Source: an uncultured delta proteobacterium
Lineage (GTDB): Bacteria > Desulfobacterota > Binatia > UBA9968
Direction of reading: 5' to 3'
Length of the DNA stretch: 64,000 nt
NCBI GenBank assembly: GCA_963745835.1
Contig: CAVUZH010000016.1
Location: 416,001-480,000 of the forward strand
The position numbers were made by a program, and so were the translations under genes. The notes under the pieces are model-generated. The model saw only the letters and a program-made list of their open reading frames with translations, was not told the DNA's origin and did not search any database. This document shows positions 2,307-25,309 of this stretch, piece after piece. The first letter of the stretch is position 1, and every line of letters begins with the position of its first letter.

Positions 2307-3806
2307 TCAGACGAATTTGATTCGCCCAGCAGCAAACCGAACCATTTTCAAAAGGAGCCAAGCATGCTTCCAGCGCTGGATATTGGTCGTGCCATAGGTA
2401 CGCTCTCGGTAGCGAATTGGCATGTCGGCGATTTTAAGATTGAGTTTGGCCGCGCCAAACAAAAGGTCGAAGTCACCAAATGGATCAAAATCGCCGAAAT
2501 AAGCGCGGTTAGCCTTAATCAACTCATAATCCTTTTTCCAAAACACTTTCGTGCCGCATAGAGTGTCTTTAATGGATTGGCTGAGCAGCCAGGAAAATGC
2601 GAGGCTAAAAAACTTGTTCCCAATAAGATTAATGAAACGCATTGCCTGATCTTCCATTGGATATACCAGACGAACGCCGTTCACGAATTCTGCTTTACCG
2701 GATACGAGCAAGTCGTAAAACCGTGGCAAATCTTCAGGAGGAACCGTCAGGTCAGCGTCAAGAATCATTAAGATATCGCCGTCGGCCTGATCAAAGCCTA
2801 ATCTGACTGCATCACCTTTTCCTTCGCCTTCTTGTTTCATCAGTCTGCAGGACCGATCAGGATATTTTACCATTGCTCGTTCTATCGCTGCATAAGTATC
2901 ATCTCTGGAATGTCCCTCAACAAACACAAGTTCCGTGTTCGCACCTAGAGCCGGTGTCCGAACGAAAATACGCTCAATGTTACCGCTTTCATTCCGCGCT
3001 GGAACAACTATGGAGACGCGTGGCTGTTCACGAGCAGTTTTAGTTGCCGCTGAATTCATGGGCCGAGCAATGACAAAATTAGTCGTCGCCAACATAGAGA
3101 TTGGCCATACTTTGACCAAAAATCGATTGGCGAAATTAGCGGCCAGCGGCAAAGGAAGAGGGCACAAGATCTCCTGCGTATGTTTGATGACTTCGAAATC
3201 CGCCAAGCTGAGCAAGTTGGCAAGATCTTCGACGGTGAGCCAGTTTTGTTCTAGGGTTGGTTTGCTCAACCGCAATCGTTGCGACAATGCAAGCAACGGT
3301 TGCCAAACGTAACTATATGTATTTAGGATTAGGCGCGTGCGATGGTGACTGAGCGCCCGCAGTTGTTTAAAGGCTGCTTGAACATCCCACAAATCATTGA
3401 CCAAATCCGAAAGTACAATAACGTCGAATTGACCATCAAAAACGAGTTCGTGTGCATCAGCTTCTATAAAGTGCAGCTGCGGGTATTTCTCTCTCGCCTG
3501 TCTAATCATCCCTCTTGAAAAATCTACGCCGACGCCGAAACATGGGTTCAATGCGGCCAATAGGTCGCCCGTGCCACAGCCGACTTCCAGCACTCGCGTT
3601 CCGGGTGAGATCATAAGTGAATAATAGTGAGCGAGTTGCTTTTGGTAAAAGGCTCCCGAGCCGTTCCAACCGTCAGCAATGCTTCGAGCCACCTGATCCC
3701 AGTGAGCCATTCGAGCACTCTGGTAACCAAGCGCGCTCATGTCCACGTGCTCGACAACTGGAGCGAGATCTCGCGTTTTTTGATCCGCGTGAACCACATC
3801 TAGCAT
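2307..3806 (-). CDS. Methyltransferase / GT2 (polyprenyl-phosphate glycosyltransferase-like) fusion
   Basis: N-terminal VLEVGCGTG; C-terminal SIVVPARNE, GKGDAV, ILDADL, DTLCG. Confidence 0.9.
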   Translation of the reverse strand: MLDVVHADQKTRDLAPVVEHVDMSALGYQSARMAHWDQVARSIADGWNGSGAFYQKQLAHYYSLMISPGTRVLEVGCGTGDLLAALNPCFGVGVDFSRGMIRQAREKYPQLHFIEADAHELVFDGQFDVIVLSDLVNDLWDVQAAFKQLRALSHHRTRLILNTYSYVWQPLLALSQRLRLSKPTLEQNWLTVEDLANLLSLADFEVIKHTQEILCPLPLPLAANFANRFLVKVWPISMLATTNFVIARPMNSAATKTAREQPRVSIVVPARNESGNIERIFVRTPALGANTELVFVEGHSRDDTYAAIERAMVKYPDRSCRLMKQEGEGKGDAVRLGFDQADGDILMILDADLTVPPEDLPRFYDLLVSGKAEFVNGVRLVYPMEDQAMRFINLIGNKFFSLAFSWLLSQSIKDTLCGTKVFWKKDYELIKANRAYFGDFDPFGDFDLLFGAAKLNLKIADMPIRYRERTYGTTNIQRWKHAWLLLKMVRFAAGRIKFV

Positions 3807-4025: not shown

Positions 4026-4814
4026 TTAAGTCCAAAAAAATTTTTCCCGCAGGAATTGAAAATAGTACGCTCCACCCCATTGTATGACTCGAAGCTTTCT
4101 TTGGCCGCCTATCCGTGGTGGTTCGTCGGCCGGTATCTCGCCGACCTTCAGTCTTCGTTTAGCCGCCCTCACCGACATTAGAGGCTCCCAACTGATCGTG
4201 GTGTGGAAAAGCTTCTCAGCGGCGGAGTAGGCTTCATCGGTATGCAACTCGAGATCGTAGATCAATTGAGTTTTGTAAGCGCGGAAGATCACCATTGAAT
4301 CGGTATAGCACCCGCCATGCAGGACGTTGATAGTTTTAGTGAACAGCCAGTTGCCGAATGCTGTAATCACGTCATCATCATCGCTCTTAGCTCCGTCCAG
4401 ATAACGGGAGCCAATCACCATGTCGTATCCTTCTTTCATTTTCTCGGTCAATGCAGGAATTCGCTCCGGAACCGAGTTGCCGTCGGGGCTGAAGGTAACG
4501 ATCACGTCTCCTTCAATGTACGGCAATACTTCAGTATAAGCGTGGCGAAATCCGCGTCTTTTCTGGACGTACACGAAGTATCCCTGTTCTTTAGCATACT
4601 CGATAGTTCCATCGGTCGAGCCGCCGTCTAAAATGATGATCTGGTGATACCATTCTTTTTTCACCCGCGGCATGATCGCCTTCATCCCGTCGATTTCGTT
4701 TAACGTCAGAACTAAAAGTGTGACTTTCCCAATCGGGAATCCAGCGGCGTGTGTCAGTTCTTCTGCCCGACGATCGCTATAGGGGTGAAGGATTGTAGAT
4801 CCATCGGTGCTCAT
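4026..4814 (-). CDS. GT2 glycosyltransferase (DPM synthase-like)
   Basis: LNEIDG, ILDGGSTDGT, FSPDG, DMVIGSRY; start uncertain (ATG 4814 or TTG 4838). Confidence 0.85.
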   Translation of the reverse strand: MSTDGSTILHPYSDRRAEELTHAAGFPIGKVTLLVLTLNEIDGMKAIMPRVKKEWYHQIIILDGGSTDGTIEYAKEQGYFVYVQKRRGFRHAYTEVLPYIEGDVIVTFSPDGNSVPERIPALTEKMKEGYDMVIGSRYLDGAKSDDDDVITAFGNWLFTKTINVLHGGCYTDSMVIFRAYKTQLIYDLELHTDEAYSAAEKLFHTTISWEPLMSVRAAKRRLKVGEIPADEPPRIGGQRKLRVIQWGGAYYFQFLREKFFWT

Positions 4815-5009
4815 AGAGTTCACATGATTGCGGTTCAAAGTACGTCAGCTCCAGCTTGTGAAAGACCCTATTTTCTTAACTTGATGTGGCCTAAACTTCC
4901 AGCCCCCTCGTGACCCTATCAAAGTATTTCGGTCTATAGAAATGGACGGCAAAAATCATCGCCAAACATACACCACCCTAAGGTTCCCACCGCGACGTGA
5001 TTCATGCCT

Positions 5010-5726
5010 CTAAAGCGAATAGCCAGCCTTCACTGCATCCTCACGAAACATCTTCACCGTGTCTAATGAGTATTCTTTTAGATCCTTTCCCACTAAGCCT
5101 AGCTTACCGAGGATGTCATTAGTAGCAGTGATGATGTGACAGCCGACCGTGTGAGCTTGGAAAATATTCAGCAGCTCCCGTGGACTAGCCCAAATCAGTT
5201 CAATGTTCGGATACGGCCGCAACAGTTCTACCGCTGCTGCCATGAGCGGCATAGGATCGCGACCCGAATCAGCAATGCGTCCGGCGAAGACCGATATACA
5301 GCTCGCCGGGCCCTGTGCAAGCGCTGCACTGGTCTCTCGAACCTGGTCGAGCGTCATCAGCGCGGTCACGTTGACCTTTATGCCTATCCTCGCCAGACGG
5401 CGGATCAATTCGGTAGAAGATTGTCCGAGCGTGTTGGTCACTGGTATTTTTACATATACGTTGTCGCCCCATTCGGCAATTTGACAAGCTTGGCGCTGCA
5501 TCTCTTCGAAATCGTCGGAAAACACCTCAAACGAGATAAGTTTATCGGGAATTGCACGGAGTATATCGCGCGCGAAGGCGCGATAATCCGTTATACCCGC
5601 CTTGCGCATCAAAGTCGGATTGGTCGTAAAACCTTTGATTAAATCGTTACGATACATTTCAAGCATTCCAGCTTTGTCCGCACCATCCGCAAATATTTTC
5701 ACTCGCAACTCAGCCAAAGCTGTCAT
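5010..5726 (-). CDS. tal: Transaldolase (short type; LmbR-like context)
   Basis: KIFADGAD, GFTTNPTL, Schiff-base VYVKIP, SVFAGRIAD, WASPRE. Confidence 0.92.
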   Translation of the reverse strand: MTALAELRVKIFADGADKAGMLEMYRNDLIKGFTTNPTLMRKAGITDYRAFARDILRAIPDKLISFEVFSDDFEEMQRQACQIAEWGDNVYVKIPVTNTLGQSSTELIRRLARIGIKVNVTALMTLDQVRETSAALAQGPASCISVFAGRIADSGRDPMPLMAAAVELLRPYPNIELIWASPRELLNIFQAHTVGCHIITATNDILGKLGLVGKDLKEYSLDTVKMFREDAVKAGYSL

Positions 5727-6256
5727 TTGGAAGCCTCCTCCAGAATGATGGCCGCAGCGGTCGTGAGATCACTGACTACCCAATCTGCCTGACAACGTTC
5801 ACTACTGCTATAGCTGCGTTCGATGAGAATCGTGGAACACCCGCAGGCGTGACCGGCCTCCACATCACTCCAACGATCCCCGATCATAAAACTCTCGTCG
5901 AGATTAAGATGCCAGTGAACCGCCGCCTGAAGTAAAAGTCCAGGTTTCGGCTTCCGACAATCGCAATTATCATTATTATCGTGATAGCAGGTTAAAACTT
6001 CTTCCACGGGCAATTCACTTCGGACTCGGTCGTTAAGCGTCTCAACGCACTGGCGCGTCTGGGTTCCACGGGCGACATCAGGCTGATTGGTAACAACAAT
6101 CAACACATAACCGGCTGCGCGTAGTGCTTGACAGGCCTGCGCAACCCCAGGCAGAAACCTGAACTCTTCGAGGCTTAGTGGCGGGTGCGGCGTGCTCTCC
6201 CGGACAAAGACGGCATTGATAACCCCGTCTCGATCCAGGAACACGGCCCTATTCAT
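5723..6256 (-). CDS. gmhB: Heptose/octose bisphosphate phosphatase (HAD, GmhB-like)
   Basis: FLDRDGVIN, VVTNQPD, CYH...CDCRKPKPG, IGDRWSD; ATG 6256 overlaps the upstream TGA. Confidence 0.9.
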   Translation of the reverse strand: MNRAVFLDRDGVINAVFVRESTPHPPLSLEEFRFLPGVAQACQALRAAGYVLIVVTNQPDVARGTQTRQCVETLNDRVRSELPVEEVLTCYHDNNDNCDCRKPKPGLLLQAAVHWHLNLDESFMIGDRWSDVEAGHACGCSTILIERSYSSSERCQADWVVSDLTTAAAIILEEASK

Positions 6257-6849
6257 CCTATTGATTCCCATTTGGTTTGCGATGCTTTTAGAAGCGGGTG
6301 CGAAACCATGAGATGCCATATAATCGATTGGAAGGCTTCGGTATGCGGTGTGACGTTCTGTGAATTGACCGTCGGTACAATCAAGCAGGCATCAGCCACT
6401 TGAGCTGTATAACCACCGTCGCGACCCACCACACCAATAATGCGCGCCCCCACTTTCCGCGAATACTCGAGAGCCTTCACCAAATTGGGGCTGATATTTT
6501 TCTCTAGGCTGCCTCCCCCGACTGAAAATACGAAAACCAAGTCATCCTTTCCGAGATGGCTTACCGCCAACCAGCCTTCGAAAACGCCAGCCCAACCTTC
6601 ATCATTGATGCGGGCGGTTAACTCGGATACGTTATCTGTCGGTGCATAGGCTTCAATCCCGACTATTTTGCGAAAATCGTTGACAGCATGAGACGCGTTG
6701 CCCGCACTTCCCCCCAACCCTAAAATGAATAATCGACCGCCCCTTGAACGCGTACTTTTCACCAACTCGACCATGCGCTCCACCGCGTCTCCATCTAATT
6801 GCTCAATGATTTTCTTAGCCTCAGAAAGAAACTCTGCGATGAAAGTCAT
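6253..6849 (-). CDS. gmhA: SIS-domain phosphosugar isomerase (GmhA/LmbN-like)
   Basis: GLGGSAGNASHAVND, TARIND, FSVGGG, HTEAFQ. Confidence 0.88.
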   Translation of the reverse strand: MTFIAEFLSEAKKIIEQLDGDAVERMVELVKSTRSRGGRLFILGLGGSAGNASHAVNDFRKIVGIEAYAPTDNVSELTARINDEGWAGVFEGWLAVSHLGKDDLVFVFSVGGGSLEKNISPNLVKALEYSRKVGARIIGVVGRDGGYTAQVADACLIVPTVNSQNVTPHTEAFQSIIWHLMVSHPLLKASQTKWESIG

Positions 6850-6862
6850 ACGACCTCATATC

Positions 6863-7591
6863 CTAACGGACTCTGTCAGAACGTGAACGCAGATGGCGGC
6901 GCATTTCCTCGATCCCCTCAAAGGATCCGATCTCGTAAAAGCGGTGACGGACCTCAAGAGCAGCTAACTCGCGACTTGCCAACAACTCCTGATATACAGC
7001 TGCCAAGTCATAGGCTTGATTGTCCGGAATCTTTTCAAATGCAGACCTCCTAAAGACTCCTAAGCCATAGTCGATATGACGCATGGCTGAGGTCTGCCGT
7101 TGTTTGTCGTAGACGCAAAGAGCGCCATCCTTGTATTCAACATTACTTCTGTCCCAAAATCCGTCGTTTCTGTAGACCGTCATCAAAGCCGGTTTGCCGC
7201 TTGCCTCGAAAACCGACTGTACTTCGCGGTAGTCACAGTCCAGATATGAATCGCCGTACAAAACGAAGAAGGTGTCTCCCAACAAGGGCAATGCCTTTTT
7301 AATCGCCCCCGCGGTGCCGAGTAGGTTCGGTCCATCAAACGAGTACTGAATTTCGAGCTTAAACTCTTCCCCGCCACCGATTTTTTCGCGAATCATTTCA
7401 CCTAGATGCCCGACGCAGATGATGACCTTCTCAATCCCATGAGCACGTAATAAACGTAAATCGTGAGCTAGGAAGGGTTCTCCATCGATATCAATCAACG
7501 CCTTTGGAACAGTCTCAGTTAATGGTTGCAATCGTGTCGCCAAACCACCCGCGAGAACCGCAACTGGAAACATCCTCTGACTCACAATCAC
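6863..7591 (-). CDS. Sugar-1-phosphate nucleotidyltransferase (HddC/LmbO-like)
   Basis: LAGGLATRL...PKAL, LGTAGA, LYGDSY. Confidence 0.88.
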   Translation of the reverse strand: MIVSQRMFPVAVLAGGLATRLQPLTETVPKALIDIDGEPFLAHDLRLLRAHGIEKVIICVGHLGEMIREKIGGGEEFKLEIQYSFDGPNLLGTAGAIKKALPLLGDTFFVLYGDSYLDCDYREVQSVFEASGKPALMTVYRNDGFWDRSNVEYKDGALCVYDKQRQTSAMRHIDYGLGVFRRSAFEKIPDNQAYDLAAVYQELLASRELAALEVRHRFYEIGSFEGIEEMRRHLRSRSDRVR

Positions 7592-8565
7592 GCGATCACT
7601 TTTGTACCTTCAAAATCGAAACGGAAACGGACTTCTTCCAATCCCGCGCCTCTCATCGCTCGCCTTAAGGCCATTTTGTCTTCAGCATAAAACATCAAAA
7701 ACCCGCCTCCCCCAGCGCCGATCAATTTCCCACCCATCGCCCCATTCTCTCGGGCTACTTCATACCAATGATCAATTTGGTTATTAGTCATAACGCCGGA
7801 ACGCTTCTTCTTATGCTCCCAATGCACATTCATCAACTCCGCAAATTTTCTCAGATCTCCTCCCTCCAATGCTTCTTTGCTCTCTCGACCGATTTCTTTT
7901 ACAAAATGAAGGTTAGTGATCATCTCCTTATCGTTTTGCCTGCTTTTCACGTCCTGCTCTCTGAGAATTTCAGATGCAGATCTTGAGTAACCTGTAAAAA
8001 ATAGCAATAAATTTTCCTCAAGGTTGTACAGTGTATCTGTATCGATCTCCAGCGGAGAAGCTTCGACCTGACCGTTTGGCAAAAAACGAAAAAAAGTGAC
8101 ACCTCCGTATGCAGCGATATACTGATCCTGTTTTCCGATTGGTTCTTTCAAAACATCCATCTCGACGTAGCAGGCCTGCTGCGCCAGATCCTCCGGATGA
8201 ATAAGATTTTTTTTAAGAGTGTGCAGAGCCTTTAGCAAAGCTGTAGTGAAGCTGCCGGAGGAACCCAGACCCGTACCGGCCGGGATATCGGCCATACTCG
8301 TGATCTCTAGATAAGGCGCCTCTACTTTCGTTAATCTCAGGGTTTCCCGGATGAGAGGATGTTGTACTTCGTCTACTGATTTAACTCGCTCCATCTTTGA
8401 GTATTTAATGATCAGTTCTTCGACAAAGGTTTGATGGAGCGTGATATAAACGTGCTTGTCAATTGCCGCTGCAAGCACGAAACCGCTATGCTCGCGGTAA
8501 TAGGAGGGTAAGTCAGTTCCTCCGCCACCCAAAGAGACGCGCAAAGGGCTGCGAGTAATAATCAT
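7588..8565 (-). CDS. GHMP sugar-phosphate kinase (HddA/LmbP-like)
   Basis: PLRVSLGGGGTD, PAGTGLGSS, GKQDQY, GAGGGGF. Confidence 0.9.
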   Translation of the reverse strand: MIITRSPLRVSLGGGGTDLPSYYREHSGFVLAAAIDKHVYITLHQTFVEELIIKYSKMERVKSVDEVQHPLIRETLRLTKVEAPYLEITSMADIPAGTGLGSSGSFTTALLKALHTLKKNLIHPEDLAQQACYVEMDVLKEPIGKQDQYIAAYGGVTFFRFLPNGQVEASPLEIDTDTLYNLEENLLLFFTGYSRSASEILREQDVKSRQNDKEMITNLHFVKEIGRESKEALEGGDLRKFAELMNVHWEHKKKRSGVMTNNQIDHWYEVARENGAMGGKLIGAGGGGFLMFYAEDKMALRRAMRGAGLEEVRFRFDFEGTKVIA

Positions 8566-9539
8566 AGAGCGGAAATTTTATAGATATGTTCGACGACCTG
8601 CAGGGCCGCTCGGGCATCATACAGATCAGCTGAGGGGCGACGTTGTAGCCGAATGTCTTCCAAAAAATCGGCAAACTCATTATTCCACGAGGTGTCCCGC
8701 ATCGGATATTCCCAACTGGTTATCTCCGGCGGTCCCATCTGAGGTAGCATCCGATAGTAGATGAGTCTTTCGACACCGTAACTACCACCCAAGCCTTCTA
8801 TTTGCAGTTTCCCTAAACGGCCAAAGATCTCGAACGAAAAAAGGTTCTTCCATTCTGTGCAACTGGCATGCAGAAAGGCAACCTGCTGCCGGGCACTCCT
8901 TAGAAGCATGAATCCGTTGTCCTCTACCGGCATATCCCAATAAAAAGTCGAAGCAAAGCCCTCGACATTTACAATGTCGCCTAGAAACCAACGTGCAAGG
9001 TCGATCAAGTGGACTCCCTGATCGATGAGTTCACCGCCGCCCGACTGTTCCGGATTGGCTCGCCATTCTTTTTCATAGCCGACGCGCCCGCCATGTCCAT
9101 AACGGCCGCGTATATACATGAGTTCACCAATCGCCCCGGATACGCACAATTCCTTAGCCTTGCAGAGCGCTGGGTGGTAGCGGTGATTAAACCCAACCCG
9201 CACTAATAGATTGAGGCGTTCTGCCATCTCTATTACAGGGTCGAGTTCTGCCACGGAACGCGCTGCCGGCTTCTCAACGAGCACATGCTTCCCCGCGGCG
9301 ATGGCGGCCAACATGATTTTTACGAGCAGATCGTTTGTCGCCGAGACGATGACAACGTCCACATTCTTTCGTTCAAGCACAACTCGCCAATCAGTCGCCG
9401 ACACCGCGCCTGATACCGTTCGCGCAAGCGCTTCCGCTCGCGTCGACAGAACGTCTGCGCACGCTACCAACCGACTGCCAGCGAGCGAAGATGCGCGCTT
9501 TTGTCCAACGCGGCCACAACCGATGATGGCAACGTTCAT
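8562..9539 (-). CDS. Gfo/Idh/MocA oxidoreductase (LmbZ-like context)
   Basis: IIGCGRVG, VLVEKP, VGFNHRY, GGGELIDQGVHLID. Confidence 0.9.
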   Translation of the reverse strand: MNVAIIGCGRVGQKRASSLAGSRLVACADVLSTRAEALARTVSGAVSATDWRVVLERKNVDVVIVSATNDLLVKIMLAAIAAGKHVLVEKPAARSVAELDPVIEMAERLNLLVRVGFNHRYHPALCKAKELCVSGAIGELMYIRGRYGHGGRVGYEKEWRANPEQSGGGELIDQGVHLIDLARWFLGDIVNVEGFASTFYWDMPVEDNGFMLLRSARQQVAFLHASCTEWKNLFSFEIFGRLGKLQIEGLGGSYGVERLIYYRMLPQMGPPEITSWEYPMRDTSWNNEFADFLEDIRLQRRPSADLYDARAALQVVEHIYKISAL

Positions 9540-10411
9540 GTTTTTGTTTTAGACCATTCTAACCCGCGATCTTTAGGAACAATGCGACGAAGTGTATAGA
9601 TGTCCGTTCCGCCGAACTCGGCGACTCGTTGTGCAAAGGTGTCCCAAGGATCCCAAACAGCGCTAATGAGTCTGCCGGTAATGCCGTCACTATCATTAGA
9701 GACTAAGAAAACACATAGCGCAGCACCCTTCTCTAGAGGCGTACCGCCGCGTTTTTTTTGTTCAAGAGCTTGTTCGTAGAAGGCGTTGCCAACCTTCTCT
9801 GGTCCAGCCTCCAAGACTTCATCGAGCAAGCGCGTATTGAGCGGCCCCGGTGCAACGGCATTAACATTAATACCGCAGTCCCGTGTCTCCTCAGCCATAG
9901 TTTCGGTAAGTCGCACCACGGCTGCCTTGGAAGCTGCATAGGCGCTGAAGCGGGGCAAAGGCGCCGTTGCCCCGCCGCCGGAAAGATTAACGATCTTGCC
10001 GTAGTTCTGCTTTCGGAAAACAGGAAGCAGAGCGCGGCAGAGAAGCGCCGTGCCCACCAGATTTATTTCAATAGCTCGTAGCCATTCTTGCAGATCTACT
10101 TCTTCAATAAGACCTTTTGGCCCGTATGCACCGGCATTGTTTATCAAACCATCGATTCGCGGCAGATTCTTCAGAGCGAATTCAACTAAGTTCCTGACAT
10201 CATCGGGCTTTGAAACGTCTGCCGATAGCGCCAACACCTGCTGCCCGGCTCGCGCCCGCAACCCTAATTCCGCTTGTGCTGCGGCTAATAAGAGCGGATC
10301 GCGGGCACAAACGACAATGTTGGCACCCTCCATTAAGCAGGCTTCAGCAATAGCTTTGCCTAAGCCCTGACTAGCACCCGTTATCAATATGCCACGGCGC
10401 TCTAGTTTCAC
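9536..10411 (-). CDS. Short-chain dehydrogenase/reductase
   Basis: TGASQGLG, NNAG, YAASK. Confidence 0.92.
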   Translation of the reverse strand: MKLERRGILITGASQGLGKAIAEACLMEGANIVVCARDPLLLAAAQAELGLRARAGQQVLALSADVSKPDDVRNLVEFALKNLPRIDGLINNAGAYGPKGLIEEVDLQEWLRAIEINLVGTALLCRALLPVFRKQNYGKIVNLSGGGATAPLPRFSAYAASKAAVVRLTETMAEETRDCGINVNAVAPGPLNTRLLDEVLEAGPEKVGNAFYEQALEQKKRGGTPLEKGAALCVFLVSNDSDGITGRLISAVWDPWDTFAQRVAEFGGTDIYTLRRIVPKDRGLEWSKTKT

Positions 10412-10420
10412 GACAGTCCC

Positions 10421-11710
10421 CTATACTTTGCCAACAGCGATATAGCGCAAGCGAGAATCGGCGCCGAGTGTCGTACGCAGAAATCGATTGGGGTCTAACA
10501 CGACAGGTGTACGCATCTGGCGCACACAATCGTCAGACGATAAAGATTTAAAGGCCGGCCAATCATTTGTCACGATCAATGCGTCCGCCTGCTGTAAGGC
10601 TTCATTGGCTGTGGCGCAAAGGGTAATATACTGCTCTAGATCAGATGGGAGCTGAGACACACCTGGATCGTTAGCCCTAACTCGCACTCCCCGTTGGGCC
10701 AACCAGATGCATAGCTCAATTGCGCTGGAACGCCGCAGCGTGTCGGTCCCAGGCTTGTAGGTTAATCCCAGCACGACCACAGTCTTGCCTGATAACTCAC
10801 CAAAGAGTTCCTGTAGTTTACGTCTTGGCCAAGCCTTGTGCTCGTCATTACTAATGCGTATCGCGGTCATCAAATGAGCAGACACTCTTTTCTGTTGACC
10901 GAGCTGACTCAGAAAATTAACGTCGCGCGCCAACGTGCCTCCCGCAAAGGCGCTACCGGGACTCAGGTAAGCCGATGGTCCGATGCGACTATCACTCCTC
11001 AGACCCCGTTCGACTTCCTTGACGTCGGCACCTACATGCTCACACAATGTCGCCAGCTCGTTAACAAAGACTACAGACGCAGCTAAGAAGGCATTCAACG
11101 CGTGTTTGGTCATCTCGGCCGATTCGACCGACATCCATTCAAGTCGTCTACAAAACGGGCTCAGCAACTGACTCAGGCGCGCCTGGTCTGATTGGTGACG
11201 CACTCCGATAACGATGCGCTCCGGACAACGAAAAGCATCAAGCGCCTTTCCGACTCGAAGATTCTCTTGCGCGTAAGCGAAGCTGACACGCCGCTCCGAG
11301 CAATTTAAACGGAACCCTGCTTCGGCCGAAGCGGTAAAACCTACCGGGACCTGTGATGAAACCAAAACCATCGCTTTGTCTGACAAATGGGAAAACAAAG
11401 CTGCCATTTGACGTGACACAAAACCAACGTCAGCAATATCGTTGTCATCGACAGGCGTATCGAAAGTTATCCAAACAATATCTGCTCCATTGACAGCGGA
11501 TGCGATGTCGTTAGTGAAAGACAGCCTGCCGGCGGAGAACCCTGCGTGTATTAGTTCTGCAAGGCCCGTTTCAAAAACCGGTGGCTGACCGCGACTCAGA
11601 TTGGAAATTACATTCGCATCGGGATCATAGCCCACGGTTGTAAAATGCTCCGCCACAGAAGCTGCTATGACGGAACCGAGATGCCAAAGACCGCATACAC
11701 AAACCTTCAT
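10421..11710 (-). CDS. UDP-glucose/GDP-mannose dehydrogenase-like protein lacking the catalytic Cys (LmbL-like)
   Basis: GLWHLG, EMTKHALN, GLTYKPGTD; canonical GGSCxxKD reads GGTLARD. Confidence 0.85.
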   Translation of the reverse strand: MKVCVCGLWHLGSVIAASVAEHFTTVGYDPDANVISNLSRGQPPVFETGLAELIHAGFSAGRLSFTNDIASAVNGADIVWITFDTPVDDNDIADVGFVSRQMAALFSHLSDKAMVLVSSQVPVGFTASAEAGFRLNCSERRVSFAYAQENLRVGKALDAFRCPERIVIGVRHQSDQARLSQLLSPFCRRLEWMSVESAEMTKHALNAFLAASVVFVNELATLCEHVGADVKEVERGLRSDSRIGPSAYLSPGSAFAGGTLARDVNFLSQLGQQKRVSAHLMTAIRISNDEHKAWPRRKLQELFGELSGKTVVVLGLTYKPGTDTLRRSSAIELCIWLAQRGVRVRANDPGVSQLPSDLEQYITLCATANEALQQADALIVTNDWPAFKSLSSDDCVRQMRTPVVLDPNRFLRTTLGADSRLRYIAVGKV

Positions 11711-12663
11711 GAACGCCGATCCAGCACCCAAGGATTCTCTTGCAAATAGCGAAGCGTGCGGAGGATTCCCTCCTGAATGCTCAGCTTAGGGCGCCAACCT
11801 AGAGTACGAATCCGGGAGCAGTCAAGAAAGATGAACGGATTGTCTCCAACCCAGCCACGTGAACCGCCAGAATATGTGATCTTGGGGTTAAGCCCCAAAT
11901 GAGCAGTAATCCAACGGAGTGAATCATTAACCGAACAATACTCTGCGGTACCTAGATTAAAAAGATTCACCTTTTCGTGAGCCCGCTCAATCGCCAGGAG
12001 CATAGCGTCGATACAGTCCTGAACATATAAGTACGACTTGCGTTGACTGCCGTCGCCAAGAACACACAATTCGTTAGGATTAGATCGAAGCTGCTTGTAG
12101 AAATCGAATATGTGTCCGTGCGTATAACGTTCCCCCAACATGGAGACGAAACGAAAAATCCATGCCTGAAAGTCAAACCCTTCGCAGTGGGCTTCAATGA
12201 ATCCTTCGCTCGCCAGTTTGGCCGCTCCATAAAGAGATGTTTGAATGGGAATGTTGGTTTCTTCCGGCGTAGGGATTATCTGAGCTTCCCCGTAAATGGA
12301 AGCAGTCGAAGTAAAAGCAATCTGTCTCACCCCATTGGCACGCATGGCGTCCAAAACATTAAACGTCACAATTGTGTTCTGCTCCAAGTCCCTCCGCGGA
12401 TGTTCCGTCCCAAAACGCACATCGGCATTGGCGGCTAGATGAAAAACAAAATTTGCGCCCGCCATAGCCCGGCTCAAGGATTCCAAATCCAGTGCATCGC
12501 CTCGGACCAGGCTGAAACTAGGATTCCTCAGACAGTCTTCGATGAACTCCATCTGACCTGTGCTGAAATTGTCATATCCAACCACTGAATGACCGTTGAG
12601 CAACAAACGGTCGGCCAGGTTGCTGCCAACATAGCCCGCACAGCCTGTTACAAAATAACGCAA
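11707..12663 (-). CDS. NAD-dependent nucleotide-sugar epimerase (extended SDR; LmbM-like context)
   Basis: TGCAGYVGS, HLAANADV, TSTASIYG, YGAAK. Confidence 0.9.
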   Translation of the reverse strand: MRYFVTGCAGYVGSNLADRLLLNGHSVVGYDNFSTGQMEFIEDCLRNPSFSLVRGDALDLESLSRAMAGANFVFHLAANADVRFGTEHPRRDLEQNTIVTFNVLDAMRANGVRQIAFTSTASIYGEAQIIPTPEETNIPIQTSLYGAAKLASEGFIEAHCEGFDFQAWIFRFVSMLGERYTHGHIFDFYKQLRSNPNELCVLGDGSQRKSYLYVQDCIDAMLLAIERAHEKVNLFNLGTAEYCSVNDSLRWITAHLGLNPKITYSGGSRGWVGDNPFIFLDCSRIRTLGWRPKLSIQEGILRTLRYLQENPWVLDRRS

Positions 12664-12684: not shown

Positions 12685-13521
12685 TTATCTCTTTTGTTTT
12701 CGGTTCCGGGTTTGCCGAAATATCCCGGCGCTTCCTTTTTGGATCGTTCCGAATCTATCAGTTCCGCTTTGCTTAGAGACTGCAAGCGCATGACAATGTG
12801 CAAACCGGATTCTGAAAATGTCGAGCCCGTTGCGAATATTCCCGCTGACCAACCGCAGCCTGCTGTCCCCATCGTCGCGCCACCTTACTGGAACCTGCGC
12901 GATCCTATAGCCACGAAGGTGCGCTAAGTATAAAACCTCAACATCAAACATATAGCCGTCTATTATCTGTCGTCCAAAAAGATCGATTGCGACATGGCGT
13001 TTAAAAAATTTGAATCCGCATTGAGTGTCAACGATGTCACGAAGGCCCACCAACGCATGTACAAACAAGCGAAAGCCTTTTGAGCCGAGCCGTCGATAAA
13101 GTGGCTGAGATTGTTCGATGCTTGACTCGGAAAGGGCACGAGAACCAATCACGATATCGTAGCCGTTACGGATTACGTCCTCGATCTTGTCCAGCTCATC
13201 AATCGGAGTCTTGTTGTCCGCGTCGGCAAATCCTATCATTTCGCCGCTGGCCATAGCGATTGCATGGCGAATGCCGTATCCTTTGCCCCGACGTTCAACA
13301 TTGCCAGTGACCTTTAACGCCGGAAGAGACACGGCCATCTCAGTCACCAATTCACGCGTGCCGTCATCTCCATCGGCGGACACAATGATCTCATAGCTCA
13401 TATTTCGCTGCCGAAAATAAGATATCGCATCCTCGATGGTCTGCCCAATACTGCTGACTTCGTTATACGCAGGCAGGATCAAACTGATATGTGGATTGTT
13501 TCTCACCAGCGCCGTACTCAT
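12685..13521 (-). CDS. Dolichyl/undecaprenyl-phosphate glycosyltransferase (GT2, ALG5-like)
   Basis: LILPAYNE, GKGYGIR, FADAD, DTQCGFK, FDVEVL. Confidence 0.9.
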   Translation of the reverse strand: MSTALVRNNPHISLILPAYNEVSSIGQTIEDAISYFRQRNMSYEIIVSADGDDGTRELVTEMAVSLPALKVTGNVERRGKGYGIRHAIAMASGEMIGFADADNKTPIDELDKIEDVIRNGYDIVIGSRALSESSIEQSQPLYRRLGSKGFRLFVHALVGLRDIVDTQCGFKFFKRHVAIDLFGRQIIDGYMFDVEVLYLAHLRGYRIAQVPVRWRDDGDSRLRLVSGNIRNGLDIFRIRFAHCHALAVSKQSGTDRFGTIQKGSAGIFRQTRNRKQKR

Positions 13522-13544
13522 GAAGGCATTCGGGAACCGTTCTT

Positions 13545-16253
13545 TCAAGCCACGGAATTTTGTAATTGGTATTTCTCTGCAATTCTTGGATAAATCCAAA
13601 GAACCAACGTGATCAACAAAAACAACCCGATGGCCGTCTTAGCTACTATGACGCTTGCCGTAAACGTTACGGGTTCAAATTTAAAAATGATGCGGCTTTG
13701 GCCAGTGCCGACTGTCGTCGCCATAAACTGAAAATTTGCCGGGATAATCGTGCCTTGTTTCCCGTTTATAAACACCCTCCAGCCCTCGTCATACGAATCG
13801 CCAAAAAAAAGCACCGCCGGTTTTTTGGTGATGATATTCAGCTCCACTCTACTCGGGGTCGCGTGGGTGGTTTGAACCATAACAGCTTTCTCTGGATACT
13901 CCGACGAATCGATAGCTGGCTCATCTCGTAAAACAATCGTTGTCAGTGGATTGAACTCGACCGCTTTCAATCGCGCGAGAGCTGCGGTCTCGTTTTCGAT
14001 CGCCTCAAAATGAGTGAAAAGCATAAACCTGGATAGTGCGTTGGGGCGGATCGACACCTCGCCGGCTTTACCAACGTCGTATCGTGCACCAACGAGATCT
14101 AAAAAACGTGGGTCTTCAATGGTATGAGCGATGGAAGACGCTAAGGCCTGATCCCCATAATCGAAATTACGGATGAAAGAAGTGTATTTTTTTGAAAACT
14201 GTGAATTGAGTCCGCCGTATAATCTCACTCCATAATAATTAGGAATATTCGTCTCAATTTCGTTGCCCGATAACCCAAGCACTAAATGCGGATGATTGAC
14301 GCGGTAATTTTCGAGGTCCAATGCTACTTTAGATTCTGCTCCAAGGATCTCGCCTGGAGTCGTCAGAGCCGGATAGAGCGACTTTCTCTTAAAAAATGGT
14401 TCCGTAACAATGCGGCTGTATATCTTATTAAAGGGCAATAAATCGCCAAGCGAAACGAGCAAAAGCACCAAAAGAAAATATTTCGTTTCAAGCTTTCGCG
14501 TCTTAAGAGACGAAAGTAAAATTACCAATAGAACACTAACTAAAACGAATCGGGCTGAGCCCATCACTACCAACAGAAACGATTCAGGCATGGATGGATG
14601 CTTACTGAACCCGGTAAACGGGATTATCAGCACACCCAAGAGTACGAGCAACGCAACTGCCGTCGCAATACCAGAGACATTTCTAAAACGAGAATTCATC
14701 ACAAAAAATAGAACTGTCAGAAGGAGAGTTGAAATGAAGGCAAGGCTGGTCAGCAAATACATTGCGCCCAATCGAAATACGTATGAAGATCCTTTCTCTT
14801 GAAGAAAATTCTTCACCTCCTGCGGCAGAATTAGATAATAGATTCCAGCAACACTCAATAAGATAAGTGCTGCAACTAGTCTCTTGAGCGGTGGTCTAAC
14901 CAAGGCATTTTCAAACAGCAAATACGAAACAAACAGCAAAACAAGGGTTATGACGCCGGCGAGCCTGACATTACCCAATATATGCGGGTAGACCTTTAGC
15001 CAAACGGAAACTACTCCTAGCAGAACCAAGCCGCAGACAAGAAGAAAAATAAGAATTTTTTCTGTGCTTACCGAAGTTGGATGTTCTTCAATATGTTTAG
15101 CTATGTAACCGACCATCAGGCACATCCCCATCGGCAGCAAGTAGAGTGAACCCAATGGATGGAGTAACGGAAAGAATCCGATATTGAATACGCCGGCTAT
15201 CGGTTGAACATTCATTAACCACAGCCAAATGGGTAAGAACATGAGCGTGAGGATTTTTATTGGTTTGTTTTTTCGTATCGCTATCAATGACCAGATGACA
15301 AGCGATATAGAAGCAGCTCCCATGTAGAAACTTGCAGCACCGTGAATGTGACCCTTAAAGCCTAAAGCTGCAAGAACAGGTTCAGATGAAGCGAAGTTGA
15401 CGCCGAGAGTTTCGGGGATAAACGTAAAATAATGAAGAAAAATAACGTCTTGAAAACCCAAGTTTGCGATACTGTCAAGCAGCCGGGTGCCATCCCTGAG
15501 AGCTTCGGCAAACGGTAAAAGGCGTACGGCACCAATCGACGCACTAATCATCACTGCCAATGCAAAAACTCCCCAATACTTTGCCTGGCAGACGATTGCC
15601 GCAGGGTGAGTGAGCGTGAAGAACGCGTAGAGGAGCATGACGCTCAACATGATATATGCCACATAAACAATGTGGCCGGAGAGAAACATCGTTCCGATGC
15701 TAAGAGTCAACAAAGCGAAGGAAATGTAGAGTTTTCGCTGACCCATCGTGAACAGCAGGTATGTCGTGATCGTGGCAAGCAGCATGGTCGTCAGGGCGGG
15801 GTACAGTGTAGTCCCGAGGAACATAAGGCTACACAATTGATAGTTTAGTGACGAGAAAAAGGCCCATTTTCTGCTACCTAAGGCAGCAGTAAAAGCAAGA
15901 AAGCCAAACACACCGACGAGCCACATCTCAATGAAGATTCGAACAGTCAGTCCCAAGTGAAAGTACTGCTCCGGAAGCAGGAATAGGATCCAGTTGAACG
16001 GGGAATAGACGTAGTTATGCGTGCTGCCTGTAAAGTTAATTCCGCAGGCAATATAAGGGTTCCATAAACCGAGGTCCCCCTGAACTAAAGCTCGTAGAGA
16101 GAAGAAGTAGTTGGGCACGAGATGAAACTTATTATCACTACTGGCAATAAGCTTCATCCCCCTCAATAAAAAGGGCGAGAAGAAGAATGCGATTAGTGTC
16201 AGGTGTGCAACGATCACGAATCTCGTTTTAGACTCCGGTGATCGTACAAACAA
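13545..16253 (-). CDS. YfhO-family polytopic membrane protein (GT-C fold)
   Basis: LWNPYIACG near the N-terminus, many TM helices, C-terminal 'SYDEGWRVFING...ANFQFMA...F.FEP'. Confidence 0.85.
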   Translation of the reverse strand: MFVRSPESKTRFVIVAHLTLIAFFFSPFLLRGMKLIASSDNKFHLVPNYFFSLRALVQGDLGLWNPYIACGINFTGSTHNYVYSPFNWILFLLPEQYFHLGLTVRIFIEMWLVGVFGFLAFTAALGSRKWAFFSSLNYQLCSLMFLGTTLYPALTTMLLATITTYLLFTMGQRKLYISFALLTLSIGTMFLSGHIVYVAYIMLSVMLLYAFFTLTHPAAIVCQAKYWGVFALAVMISASIGAVRLLPFAEALRDGTRLLDSIANLGFQDVIFLHYFTFIPETLGVNFASSEPVLAALGFKGHIHGAASFYMGAASISLVIWSLIAIRKNKPIKILTLMFLPIWLWLMNVQPIAGVFNIGFFPLLHPLGSLYLLPMGMCLMVGYIAKHIEEHPTSVSTEKILIFLLVCGLVLLGVVSVWLKVYPHILGNVRLAGVITLVLLFVSYLLFENALVRPPLKRLVAALILLSVAGIYYLILPQEVKNFLQEKGSSYVFRLGAMYLLTSLAFISTLLLTVLFFVMNSRFRNVSGIATAVALLVLLGVLIIPFTGFSKHPSMPESFLLVVMGSARFVLVSVLLVILLSSLKTRKLETKYFLLVLLLVSLGDLLPFNKIYSRIVTEPFFKRKSLYPALTTPGEILGAESKVALDLENYRVNHPHLVLGLSGNEIETNIPNYYGVRLYGGLNSQFSKKYTSFIRNFDYGDQALASSIAHTIEDPRFLDLVGARYDVGKAGEVSIRPNALSRFMLFTHFEAIENETAALARLKAVEFNPLTTIVLRDEPAIDSSEYPEKAVMVQTTHATPSRVELNIITKKPAVLFFGDSYDEGWRVFINGKQGTIIPANFQFMATTVGTGQSRIIFKFEPVTFTASVIVAKTAIGLFLLITLVLWIYPRIAEKYQLQNSVA

Positions 16254-16486: not shown

Positions 16487-16589
16487 GTCTAAAATAATGA
16501 TGATACGCACATTCTCTTTTCACCCGCGGCATGATCGCCTTCATGCCCTCGACTTCATTCAGCGCTAAAACTAGCAGAGTCACTTTCAC
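16487..16589 (-). pseudogene. 5' remnant of a GT2 gene paralogous to 4026-4814
   Basis: GTG overlapping the NUDIX stop encodes VKVTLLVLALNEVEGMKAIMPRVKRE, versus KVTLLVLTLNEIDGMKAIMPRVKKE in the intact gene; then frameshift and loss of similarity. Confidence 0.85.
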
Positions 16590-17221
16590 ACTGGACCGTC
16601 CAGAGCCTGGTTCTCAAATCGACTGTACATAAAGAATGCTATAACTGTTGATGGGTCCTGGACCTCAGAACGGAGTATCATTTCTTCGACTTCTTGAATA
16701 TTGAAAAACCGGAGTTCTCGGTGCCCGATTTCCGCGGGCGCATACTCCCGTTCCTTTACACACTCGGTCGCCGCAAACAGCTGCACTCTGGCCGCCAAAA
16801 TTCCCCCATCCGGAGTGATAAAGCCCAACGATCGAATTGCTTCGGATTTGCAATCGAGTCCTGTCTCTTCCTTTAGTTCTCGACCCGCTGCGCTCGCAGA
16901 CACCTCTTGCCGATCGATAAAACCTCGCGGAATCTCCCATGAGTATTGTCCAATGGGATGACGGTAAATACGGATTAGGCCGATTTTGCCGTCAACGATC
17001 GGCAGAACCGCCACTCCGGTGACGAGATTAGAGGCGACACGTTTTGGCGCAACCACCAGATAATCTCTGATGGTCATGCGGCCTTGTGAAGTCAGTTCGT
17101 CAAAGAAGATATTAAACTGGCTGTTCTCGCAGACAAGTTTTCGCTTTTTTTGCTCCGGCTGCTGAGGTTTCGCACCCATCGAATCAGCAGATCGTCGCTT
17201 TCGCACAGAATCGCGTCGCAC
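16586..17221 (-). CDS. NUDIX hydrolase (NDP-sugar pyrophosphatase-like)
   Basis: WEIPRG...AAGRELKEETG Nudix box; start could be 17179. Confidence 0.88.
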   Translation of the reverse strand: MRRDSVRKRRSADSMGAKPQQPEQKKRKLVCENSQFNIFFDELTSQGRMTIRDYLVVAPKRVASNLVTGVAVLPIVDGKIGLIRIYRHPIGQYSWEIPRGFIDRQEVSASAAGRELKEETGLDCKSEAIRSLGFITPDGGILAARVQLFAATECVKEREYAPAEIGHRELRFFNIQEVEEMILRSEVQDPSTVIAFFMYSRFENQALDGPV

Positions 17222-17232
17222 GCACTAAGGGT

Positions 17233-18747
17233 TCAGGCTGCAGCCAAGATTCTTCTGACTAATCGTTGTGACGCCATTTCGCGGATGTGCTCAGCCGTAA
17301 GCGAACCGTATTTTGCCTCGATCATCCGCAAATACTGTGGACTGCTGAAATACCGGTGAAAAGCCTCATCACGAAACTTCAGCACGGCCGCGCCTGATAG
17401 GTACTTCGTGGGCAAGGGCAAGGTGTCGATGGCATGCTGCGAATAGCCGGACCACTTCTCCGGGAGCGGCCAACTTTCTCTCATCGCCAGGTTGTATAAC
17501 TGGGATCCAGGATAGGCCATGGCAGAATAGAAGTTCGCGAATTCACAGTTGAGTTCGAGAGCTAAATTAAGCGTCGACTCCATGCTCTCCAGATCATCTT
17601 CCGGAAGACCAAAAATATAGTTGGCGATCACGTTAACATCGGCTGCTCTCACGTTCTCCAAAGTGCGAAAGATCACCTCCTGATCGAATCCTTTATCCAC
17701 GTCATCACGCACCCGATCGCTAGCCGCCTCGATGCCAAACGCCAGCCAGTTGAAGCCTGCGCGTTTGAGCTTTTCCAGCATCCCGTCCTTGACCGTGTCG
17801 ACGCGCGCGTAAGCCCAGATATTCAGGTCGTAACCGCGTTCGATAATCGCATCGCATATCCCAAGTATGTGACGTGAATTCAGGACGAACATCTCGTCGG
17901 CTATCTTAATATTACGAATGCCATACTGGTTGACAAGTTTATCGATCTGGGCGATCACCGCCTGCGCGCTCCAGAAGCGATAGCTATTGACGCTTTCCTT
18001 CCATCCCGCTTCCTTTTCTCCGGTCTTAAACGGCGCTTGAATACAGCAGAAACTGCAATGAAAAGGACAGCCGAAGGTTGTGTAGAACGAGGCATAGGGC
18101 TCTCGTTGAAGATCTCCGAAGCAGTGCCAGTTGTGCGCTCGGTACTTGTCCATAGGCAAAAGATCCCATGCGAGTTCCGGGATTTCGTCATCTAGATTTT
18201 TGACCAGTGGAGCTGCGGGTGTGGAGATGACAACGCCGTCTTTCCAATAACAGATTCCCCGCACCTTCGAATAGTCCGGTGATGTAGATTTTGCCGCCTG
18301 CAACAAATCGACGAGAGTATAGGGTCCTTCTCCGGTGCACACGAAATCCGCCGCTTCCTCCCGCAACGTACGCTCCGGAAGCGCCGCGACATGTCCGCCC
18401 ACCAGCGCTAATTTGCGATTCGGATTGAGTTCTTTAAGCGCATCGCAGATCAAGCCGGAGACCGTCATGTTTTGGGTAGAGGCCGATGGTTGATGGCCAT
18501 AAACGACAATCACCGCCAATCGAGGATCCATGTCCTCGATCCGCGTCGCGGTTTCTTCGGGTGTTAGATTCTCCGCTTCCGCATCTACGATTTGAACCGA
18601 GAAACCGTGTTTACGAACAAACGTTGCCAACAAGCTTGCCCATACCGGAGGCTCGATGGCCGCCAGCTTCGATCCCAAAGATTGATAAACCTGCATGCGG
18701 GTTCCGGGGTGAACCAGTACCAGGTCCAATTGGCCATTACGAGACAT
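17233..18747 (-). CDS. Cobalamin-binding radical SAM enzyme
   Basis: N-terminal B12-binding domain (GGHVAALP, TGEG); GCPFHCSFC; FGIEA; YIFGLP. Confidence 0.92.
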   Translation of the reverse strand: MSRNGQLDLVLVHPGTRMQVYQSLGSKLAAIEPPVWASLLATFVRKHGFSVQIVDAEAENLTPEETATRIEDMDPRLAVIVVYGHQPSASTQNMTVSGLICDALKELNPNRKLALVGGHVAALPERTLREEAADFVCTGEGPYTLVDLLQAAKSTSPDYSKVRGICYWKDGVVISTPAAPLVKNLDDEIPELAWDLLPMDKYRAHNWHCFGDLQREPYASFYTTFGCPFHCSFCCIQAPFKTGEKEAGWKESVNSYRFWSAQAVIAQIDKLVNQYGIRNIKIADEMFVLNSRHILGICDAIIERGYDLNIWAYARVDTVKDGMLEKLKRAGFNWLAFGIEAASDRVRDDVDKGFDQEVIFRTLENVRAADVNVIANYIFGLPEDDLESMESTLNLALELNCEFANFYSAMAYPGSQLYNLAMRESWPLPEKWSGYSQHAIDTLPLPTKYLSGAAVLKFRDEAFHRYFSSPQYLRMIEAKYGSLTAEHIREMASQRLVRRILAAA

Positions 18748-19948: not shown

Positions 19949-19955
19949 GGTTCGA

Positions 19956-21941: not shown

Positions 21942-21945
21942 GAGG

Positions 21946-22882: not shown

Positions 22883-22930
22883 TTATAAGCGAATAGAAAT
22901 CGAGGGTGCCAAGCTGTAGGGCTGGTCCGT

Positions 22931-24004: not shown

Positions 24005-24564
24005 TGATCACGCACCTTTCTAAAGATCCTGTCGATGACTTCCACGGCTGCGGGCAGATCATCGACGATGTAATCCGGCGCAACCTTCTGCTCAGAAGCT
24101 ACTTGAGCCCCATAGCCCGTGCGTACCAGCATCGTCATAGCTCCAACCCGGCAACCCATCTCGATATCGCTCAACTTGTCACCAATAACAATGCTGCCTG
24201 ACAAATCAAAGTTCAAATCGTCCGATGCCTTTTGGATTAATCCAGGGCGCGGTTTACGGCAGAAACATTGGTCTTGAGGAGTATGCGGGCAAAAATAGAG
24301 ACCATCGAGAGTTATCTCTTCAGCACGCAGCATCTCTAAAAACCTGTCATGAATCCGCGTCAACTGCGCTTCATCAAAATATCCCCGTCCGACCGCCGAT
24401 TGATTGGTAATGACAACCAGCCCGAGGCCCATGGCACCGAGATCCCGGAGCGCCTTGCCTGCCCCGGGAATCAGCGCAATCTGTTTCGGATCCGACAGGT
24501 AAGACACCTCTTCGATGATCGTGCCATCCCTATCGAGTACTACAAACCGCCGTTTCACGTTCAT
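24001..24564 (-). CDS. gmhB: Heptose 1,7-bisphosphate phosphatase
   Basis: LDRDGT, ITNQS, CPH...CFCRKP, IGDKLSD. Confidence 0.9.
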   Translation of the reverse strand: MNVKRRFVVLDRDGTIIEEVSYLSDPKQIALIPGAGKALRDLGAMGLGLVVITNQSAVGRGYFDEAQLTRIHDRFLEMLRAEEITLDGLYFCPHTPQDQCFCRKPRPGLIQKASDDLNFDLSGSIVIGDKLSDIEMGCRVGAMTMLVRTGYGAQVASEQKVAPDYIVDDLPAAVEVIDRIFRKVRDQ

Positions 24565-25282: not shown

Positions 25283-25309
25283 TACGATTTCTCTTCGCCC
25301 TGAACAAAA

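Follow-up and report, generated by a model that had tools for sequence, protein, structure and literature searches.

A conserved nine-gene operon that may direct a lincosamide-like NDP-octose pathway for cell-envelope glycosylation

Introduction

Two described sugar pathways come closest to the gene cassette reported here, which lies at positions 5010-12663 on the minus strand of a 64,000-nucleotide stretch of DNA (hereafter the window; positions 416,001-480,000 of contig CAVUZH010000016.1, assembly GCA_963745835.1) from an uncultured delta proteobacterium of the Binatia (UBA9968). In the first of these, the lincosamide sugar route, LmbR makes octulose-8-phosphate from ribose-5-phosphate, and LmbL together with LmbZ/CcbZ is reported to carry out a 6,8-dehydration; we take LmbL to be a homologue of UDP-glucose dehydrogenase (UGD) and LmbZ to be a Gfo/Idh/MocA protein. 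In the second, heptose synthesis from sedoheptulose-7-phosphate, no transaldolase is needed, and tailoring to 6-deoxyheptoses is achieved by a 4,6-dehydratase and a reductase. We know of no described heptose pathway that includes a dedicated transaldolase.

The enzyme classes of the Lmb proteins are tabulated in Table 2 of PMC4351081 and Table 1 of PMC12945683, and according to the latter source LmbM, LmbL, CcbZ and CcbS turn GDP-octose into GDP-lincosamide. No account of such a pathway from organisms other than lincosamide producers was found in the open-access literature searched, a body that leaves subscription journals largely uncovered. The cassette in the window is best read as a lincosamide-like nucleoside diphosphate (NDP)-octose pathway that ends in ketoreduction and feeds envelope glycosylation, and we give this reading an even chance of being correct.

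Results

In the direction of transcription, the cassette begins with an NDP-sugar epimerase of the extended short-chain dehydrogenase/reductase (SDR) type (11707-12663; Pfam Epimerase, 155 bits), followed by a homologue of nucleotide-sugar dehydrogenases, referred to here as the UGD-like protein (open reading frame (ORF) 10421-11731 from a TTG at 11731, likely start ATG 11710), which has three UDPG_MGDP_dh domains and a TIGR03026 score of 274 bits. Then come a classical SDR, which is a putative ketoreductase (9536-10411; adh_short, 179 bits), a Gfo/Idh/MocA NAD(P)-dependent sugar oxidoreductase (8562-9539; GFO_IDH_MocA and C3 domains in Pfam), an HddA-like GHMP sugar-phosphate anomeric kinase (7588-8565; GHMP_kinases_N/C) and a sugar-1-phosphate nucleotidyltransferase (6863-7591; NTP_transferase in Pfam). 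The remaining genes encode a SIS-domain ketose-phosphate isomerase (6253-6849; SIS_2, 35 bits), a GmhB-like HAD-IIIA sugar-bisphosphate phosphatase (ORF 5723-6319, likely start ATG 6256; Hydrolase_like and HAD models) and, in the last position, a short transaldolase of TalC/FSA size (5010-5726; TAL_FSA, 140 bits). The ORF listing and the Pfam and NCBIfam searches agreed with the first-pass annotation of this DNA, made from the sequence by a model, on the nine genes and on their families. Its description of the genes as mostly stop/start-coupled was also accurate: ATGA or GTGA overlaps were found at six of the eight junctions, a count that takes ATG 11710 and ATG 6256 as the likely start codons, and the other two junctions are gaps of 9 and 13 nt. 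The junction sequences show that ATG 11710 overlaps the stop codon of the epimerase gene as ATGA and that ATG 6256 overlaps the stop codon of the SIS gene in the same manner.

A profile of the UGD-like family was searched against 185,579 species genomes. This search returned at least 591 related stretches, the best 80 of which were retrieved together with 10 kb of flanking sequence at either end, and matches to the window's cassette proteins were called by tblastn (E ≤ 1e-10, at least 60% of the query). Many of these loci lie on short contigs; 48 of the 80 have room for the cassette, meaning that the UGD-like gene is preceded by 1 kb or more of sequence and followed by 6.8 kb or more. The SDR was matched in 73 of the 80 loci (48 of the 48 with room), the epimerase in 65 (41 of 48), the Gfo protein in 65 (44 of 48), the kinase in 53 (40 of 48) and the nucleotidyltransferase in 51 (38 of 48). 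Matches to the SIS protein were present in 41 loci (35 of 48), to the transaldolase, within 10 kb, in 41 (34 of 48) and to the HAD phosphatase in 38 (29 of 48). All nine genes occurred in 26 of the 48 loci with room; at 40% identity or more, all nine were present in 28 of the 80 loci, and the exact order and strand of the window were kept in 24. Recurrence of the complete set in unchanged order, at 24 of 80 related loci across many phyla, goes far beyond what chance would give, and the nine genes are one conserved operon rather than a chance neighbourhood.

The cassette is a fixed and widely transferred operon. By the labels of their records, the loci come from Acidobacteriota, Chloroflexota, Myxococcota, Planctomycetota, Nitrospirota, Elusimicrobiota, Bacillota, Candidatus Methanoperedens and one bin labelled Enterobacteriaceae. 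All nine genes are also carried by plasmid pRCCGE525c of Rhizobium jaguaris, in the order of the window, and by plasmid 3 of Lawsonia intracellularis, in a rearranged form. The cassette of Lawsonia, a pig pathogen, is split by an MprF-like transmembrane-domain gene (locus L081, 751-20580) and is flanked by genes for two hypothetical proteins of ca. 1090 residues, GT2 genes, a GH99-like protein and an ATP-binding cassette (ABC) permease. No DNA match to the cassette of one related locus (L033) was found in complete genomes of Escherichia coli, so no O-antigen of known structure is tied to the cassette.

The UGD-like protein contains PF03721, PF00984 and PF03720, the NAD-binding, central and nucleotide-binding domains, all above their cut-offs. 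In the alignment it reads GGTLARD where solved UGDs read GGSCFPKD; the first-pass description of the protein as Cys-less was therefore right, and the nucleophile of the UGD motif GGxCxxKD is replaced by Thr. The catalytic Lys and Asn (ESAEMTKH..N) and the catalytic Asp are retained and are invariant across a 21-member family alignment. When a collection of 5.8 billion proteins was searched and the best 120 homologues were taken, 119 of them (54-95% identical) carried GGTLxRD, and the Thr motif was present in 72 of 72 UGD-like ORFs from the related loci. Some homologues bear the source name 'UDPglucose 6-dehydrogenase', and a search of ESM Atlas returned generic nucleotide-sugar dehydrogenase clusters only. 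In UGD, the Cys forms the thiohemiacetal and the thioester and is needed for the second oxidation. Given this established mechanism, the replacement of Cys by Thr implies that the second, thioester-dependent oxidation to the acid should be impossible; the Thr enzyme should stop at the carbonyl, which would suit the oxidation of a secondary alcohol.

The SDR translation shows the TGxxxGxG, NNAG and YxxxK motifs, and its gene always stands next after the UGD-like gene. Its presence in every locus with room makes it an integral member of the cassette, and no aminotransferase is found among the nine genes, in line with the first-pass proposal that the SDR stands in its place. The best solved relatives of the Gfo protein are sugar and inositol dehydrogenases (93 bits at most). 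In some metagenome-assembled genomes of Bryobacteraceae, the UGD-like and SDR genes form an isolated pair (L002, 9929-12153; L025, 9998-12162) whose neighbours are unrelated: a sigma factor, a peptidase, an Rrf2 protein and a cysteine desulfurase-like protein. An ORF with a Gfo/Idh/MocA domain, known by that domain only, lies at 4718-5701 in L002, ca. 4 kb upstream of the pair.

We then compare the front end of the cassette with the heptose enzymes. The transaldolase, SIS, GHMP kinase, HAD and nucleotidyltransferase genes form a complete front end in one operon, and the set is linked in 26 of the 48 loci with room. None of the four proteins other than the transaldolase attains the curated NCBIfam cut-off for GmhA, HddA, GmhB or HddC: the scores were 54 bits against a cut-off of 209 for GmhA (TIGR00441), 167 against 600 for HddA and 79 against 300 for HddC, and the HAD phosphatase scored 129 against 178 with PRK08942 and 99 against 150 with TIGR00213, the two GmhB models. 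The kinase matched PDB entry 3k85 at 169 bits, and the SIS protein matched the best solved GmhA at 45 bits. The SIS protein has a family of its own, which at E ≤ 1e-30 numbers 402 representatives of 50% clusters. Natural SIS-HAD and HAD-SIS fusions occur in this family (P0242, P0257 and P0247) and link isomerase and phosphatase as parts of one pathway. A fusion to a carrier protein, the mark of LmbN, was not found in 20 extended SIS proteins (16 with N-terminal extensions of 40-120 residues and four long ones, from the best 150 representatives), which contained SIS or SIS plus HAD only. Seven arginine- and alanine-rich SIS representatives resemble, on reading, frameshifted read-throughs. The transaldolase scored 326 bits with TIGR02134 (cut-off 282), and its translation contains a 'VKIP' lysine, presumably the Schiff-base lysine. 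The single Streptomyces match to it in the plasmid records adjoins genes for a major facilitator superfamily (MFS) transporter, a lactone oxidase and HxpB, with no sugar cassette; in a transaldolase tree of 42 rows, the Streptomyces row stands on a very long branch.

The best PDB matches of the epimerase were 3ehe (283 bits) and 8rdg (279 bits, with an alignment covering residues 1-310). The protein is ca. 50% identical over its full length to PhGal4E_1 (8RDG) of Pyrococcus horikoshii, which is described in PMC12171764 as a 4-epimerase preferring GDP-sugars; that paper nowhere uses the expressions 'natural substrate', 'in vivo', 'operon', 'genom' or 'biological role'. The other closest solved relative, 3EHE, is GalE-1 of Archaeoglobus fulgidus. 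By reading of the alignment with 8RDG, the catalytic Tyr (Y145) and Lys, R83 and H182 are kept, P80 is changed to Ala and N174 to Ser, and the cassette enzyme sits in a fixed operon. Because of the epimerase's ca. 50% identity to the GDP-preferring PhGal4E_1, the nucleotide of the cassette sugar is likely to be GDP. This sugar could be the natural substrate of the archaeal subgroup of 'promiscuous' GDP-sugar 4-epimerases. The nucleotidyltransferase scored 121 bits with MurU, 81 bits with the Rv mannose-1-phosphate guanylyltransferase and 79 bits with HddC, all below the respective cut-offs, and its PDB matches were 4y7t (87 bits) and 5xhw (63 bits).

The cassette lies within a run of ca. 26 kb of envelope-sugar genes that reaches LptD. 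Directly upstream, 21 nt from the epimerase gene, is a minus-strand GT2 gene (12685-13599; Glycos_transf_2), whose product is similar to polyprenyl-phosphate sugar transferases, with weak matches to the models for dolichyl-phosphate hexose transferase, AglJ and ArnC. Its homologues, with identities of up to 69%, occur in 21 of 82 loci (the 80 genome loci and the two plasmid loci), making it a recurrent partner of the cassette. The next minus-strand gene (13545-16253) encodes a 902-residue polytopic membrane protein with ca. 16 hydrophobic segments and a YfhO match of 44 bits over residues 793-870; it is a candidate periplasmic (GT-C type) glycosyltransferase, and no homologue of it was found in the related loci searched. 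Downstream of the cassette, also on the minus strand, Pfam identified a methyltransferase (1524-2291), a methyltransferase-GT2 fusion (2307-3806) and a GT2 protein (4026-4838). The fusion matches ORFs in 6 related loci, 2 of them above 50% identity, and clustering of the ORFs of the related loci gave methyltransferases in 14 and 12 loci and a methyltransferase-GT2 fusion in 12. The recurrent non-cassette neighbours in these loci are GT2 proteins, class I methyltransferases, methyltransferase-GT2 fusions, GT4 proteins and Bac_transf priming enzymes. These glycan-assembly genes, found around the cassette both in the window and in the related loci, support the use of the product in a glycan and disfavour an antibiotic cluster; the cell-envelope setting named in the first-pass annotation was thus upheld.

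A second set of sugar genes on the same strand (16586-26248) looks like a separate route to a 3,6-dideoxy, possibly branched or C-methylated, heptose. It comprises a NUDIX protein (16586-17221), a B12-radical-SAM enzyme (17233-18762), a ColD-like pyridoxamine phosphate (PMP) 3-dehydratase (18737-20041), an E1 alpha/beta thiamine pair (19956-21941), a split GDP-fucose-synthase-like gene (21946-22882), a GHMP kinase (22931-24004), a GmhB-like HAD protein (24001-24648), a nucleotidyltransferase (24530-25282) and an extended SDR (25310-26248); no SIS gene is among the genes of this interval. The cassette homologues in the related loci are 25-41% identical to the kinase, phosphatase and nucleotidyltransferase of this second route (22931-25282), and this low identity suggests two different substrates. 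The gene at 18737-20041, 6 kb upstream of the cassette, is the only DegT/DnrJ-family gene in the window. Its closest solved relatives are ColD, the GDP-4-keto-6-deoxymannose 3-dehydratase (185 bits), and it has His-His where aminotransferases have the pyridoxal phosphate (PLP) lysine. A DegT relative was present within 10 kb in 2 of the 80 loci by tblastn and in 5 loci by ORF clustering, and never inside the cassette. The gene was considered as the missing aminotransferase and was rejected, being ColD-like, with His for Lys, and without a cassette-linked counterpart elsewhere.

Some other features of the window were observed. The ArgRS encoded by its organism shares 98% identity with a protein from a metagenome-assembled genome called 'Deltaproteobacteria bacterium' and 91% with one from 'Candidatus Binatia'. 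At the downstream end of the sugar locus, ORF 212-1507 encodes a protein of 431 residues with ca. 11 hydrophobic segments and no match in Pfam or NCBIfam, which could be a polymerase, ligase or flippase. An ORF with an integrase core (rve) lies at 60931-61809, near the far end of the window, and the G+C content, ca. 0.49 across the sugar locus, climbs to 0.55-0.60 at 40-50 kb. Several genes are split or shortened: the GDP-fucose-synthase-like (Fcl-like) gene consists of two overlapping ORFs, LptD (26459-28778) is in two ORFs, an indole-3-glycerol phosphate synthase (IGPS) of 169 aa (33196-33705) covers profile positions 1-160 of 254, and a phospholipase D (PLD)-type protein (42912-44368) is in two ORFs. 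Either assembly errors that introduced frameshifts or genuine pseudogenes may account for this.

Discussion

An octose is favoured as the product of the cassette because the enzyme classes correspond one-to-one to those of the lincosamide sugar route and because the cassette regularly includes a transaldolase of its own, though heptose synthesis needs none. It is favoured further because the front-end scores fall far below the curated heptose cut-offs, because the SIS protein has a large family of its own, and because the window holds two paralogous front ends side by side. On this reading a C8 chain length, an 8-deoxy product and orthology with the Lmb/Ccb proteins would be expected. The proposed route, every chemical step of which is predicted from the sequences, is as described below. 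The transaldolase would transfer a dihydroxyacetone unit from fructose-6-phosphate or sedoheptulose-7-phosphate onto ribose-5-phosphate, giving octulose-8-phosphate, which the SIS enzyme would convert to octose-8-phosphate. The GHMP kinase would phosphorylate C1, the HAD phosphatase would remove the terminal phosphate, and the nucleotidyltransferase would form an NDP-octose, probably the GDP form. The Cys-less UGD-like enzyme would then perform a single alcohol-to-carbonyl oxidation, proposed at the secondary C6 hydroxyl; together with the Gfo/Idh/MocA protein it may bring about loss of the C8 hydroxyl, as reported for LmbL with LmbZ/CcbZ. The SDR would reduce the ketone, in place of amination by an aminotransferase, and the epimerase would set C4 and/or C6. 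The route would end in GDP-8-deoxy-octose or an epimeric octose, which GT2 enzymes would transfer and which may be O-methylated.

Several observations weigh against the octose reading or are neutral to it. The transaldolase passes the curated cut-off of an ordinary, Staphylococcus-type family and is 47-53% identical to stand-alone or phosphotransferase system (PTS)-linked transaldolases of Ligilactobacillus, Lactobacillus, Treponema and Staphylococcus, so that its sequence alone is no argument for a new acceptor; the Lawsonia cassette transaldolase, at 53%, is no closer to it than these catabolic members. The transaldolase tree is neutral on a specialised cassette clade: the cassette copies are not set apart with confidence, and three non-cassette transaldolases, from lactobacilli and Treponema, form one clade beside the cassette copies of Methanoperedens, Bacillota and Lawsonia. 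The kinase, phosphatase and nucleotidyltransferase of the window's second set also fail the heptose cut-offs (HddA 147 against 600 bits, GmhB 172 against 178, HddC 143 against 300), which suggests that these cut-offs are strict and discriminate poorly. The top model for the nucleotidyltransferase is a uridylyltransferase, MurU. The tightest unit of the cassette is the UGD-like protein with the SDR, and the isolated pairs in L002 and L025 have no Gfo gene reaching the tblastn thresholds; such a lone pair fits epimerisation by oxidation and reduction as well as it fits dehydration. Besides, the 80 loci were picked by likeness to the UGD-like protein, and the frequencies among them hold for its nearest relatives.

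The main rival explanation is a modified heptose, which we regard as unlikely though better placed than the other alternatives. In this case, the transaldolase would boost the supply of sedoheptulose-7-phosphate, and the SIS protein, kinase, phosphatase and nucleotidyltransferase would make NDP-D-glycero-D-manno-heptose. The UGD-like enzyme would then oxidise C6 and the SDR would reduce it from the opposite face, with the Gfo protein and the epimerase acting at other centres to give an epimeric heptose. The tight UGD-like/SDR pair, able to stand alone, suits such an oxidise-then-reduce epimerisation, GmhA, HddA, GmhB and HddC are the nearest named families of the front-end proteins, and the transaldolase belongs by its curated cut-off to the ordinary family, with its 47-53% identity to catabolic members. 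However, the four front-end scores are far below the cut-offs, with the SIS protein at 45-54 bits against GmhA. The transaldolase is also retained in 34 of the 48 loci with room, though to our knowledge heptose pathways go without a dedicated one, and the second set in the window, beside its dehydratase, ColD-like and Fcl-like genes, already resembles a deoxyheptose route.

A product of another chain length or chemistry seems more improbable still; examples are a nonose made from a hexose-6-phosphate acceptor, a keto-octose, a C4/C6 epimer or a 4-deoxy octose. The sequences fix neither the acceptor of the transaldolase nor the site at which the UGD-like, Gfo and SDR proteins act, and the methyltransferases that recur nearby show further tailoring, but the one-to-one match of enzyme classes with the lincosamide route makes an octose the simpler explanation. 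Lastly, a lincosamide-like antibiotic cluster is very improbable, even though the lincomycin and celesticetin route is the one characterised pathway that combines these enzyme classes. The ORFs scanned in the window include none for condensation, thiol transfer, the amino-acid unit or resistance; the neighbours are genes for GT2 enzymes, methyltransferases and a YfhO-like membrane protein, and LptD follows after another 10 kb. In the related loci there are genes of the GT2, GT4 and Bac_transf families, and the cassette occurs in hundreds of genomes from many phyla.

The suggestion in the first-pass annotation that the cassette represents the ancestral role of the lincosamide sugar genes fits its breadth. 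A bolder version, which we put forward tentatively and consider rather doubtful, is that the interphylum cassette, including that of Methanoperedens, makes GDP-8-deoxy-octose, that the lincosamide route of Streptomyces was a late recruitment, and that the octose is the natural substrate of the archaeal 4-epimerases. If this were true, GDP-8-deoxy-octose would be a monosaccharide class unreported from any cell-envelope glycan, and the lincosamide route would have swapped in an aminotransferase for the ketoreductase. Should the product prove to be an octose, neutral sugars with eight carbons would be a common unit of envelope glycans, and not an oddity of one antibiotic, in hosts that include soil and sediment bacteria, some archaea, a rhizobial symbiont and an animal pathogen. 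Glycan analysis would gain a new monosaccharide class, the lincosamide sugar genes an evolutionary source, and the large Cys-less 'UDP-glucose dehydrogenase' family, whose members are now annotated as ordinary UGDs, a role. The presence of the cassette in the cultured R. jaguaris makes the question directly testable.

The UGD-like protein shares the three-domain architecture and the catalytic Lys, Asn and Asp with the UDP-glucose and GDP-mannose 6-dehydrogenases, and differs from them by the change of Cys to Thr throughout the cassette family. Compared with the pathway to GDP-D-glycero-alpha-D-manno-heptose, the four front-end folds and the order of the reactions are the same, and GmhA, HddA, GmhB and HddC are the closest named families; the cassette differs in its scores below the cut-offs, its dedicated transaldolase and its tailoring by UGD-like, Gfo and SDR proteins.

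In the case of the lincosamide route of Streptomyces lincolnensis and S. caelestis, the likeness of the cassette to the Lmb/Ccb proteins is known at the level of enzyme classes only, which tempers the octose reading. PDB searches with seven of the nine proteins matched no solved Lmb/Ccb sugar enzyme, and no lincosamide cluster was found in the plasmid records. At the class level, the match of eight enzyme classes to LmbR, LmbN, LmbP, LmbK, LmbO, LmbM, LmbL and LmbZ claimed in the first-pass annotation agrees with the tables of PMC4351081 and PMC12945683: the transaldolase, SIS isomerase, kinase, phosphatase and nucleotidyltransferase classes are present in both systems, and the cassette also holds, in conserved synteny, the epimerase (LmbM), dehydrogenase (LmbL) and NAD(P) oxidoreductase (LmbZ) classes. 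Unlike the lincosamide route, the cassette includes a classical SDR and lacks an aminotransferase (LmbS/CcbS), and its SIS and Gfo genes are without carrier-protein fusions. While the lincosamide route is confined to a few Streptomyces, the cassette is spread over many phyla and archaea in a glycan context.

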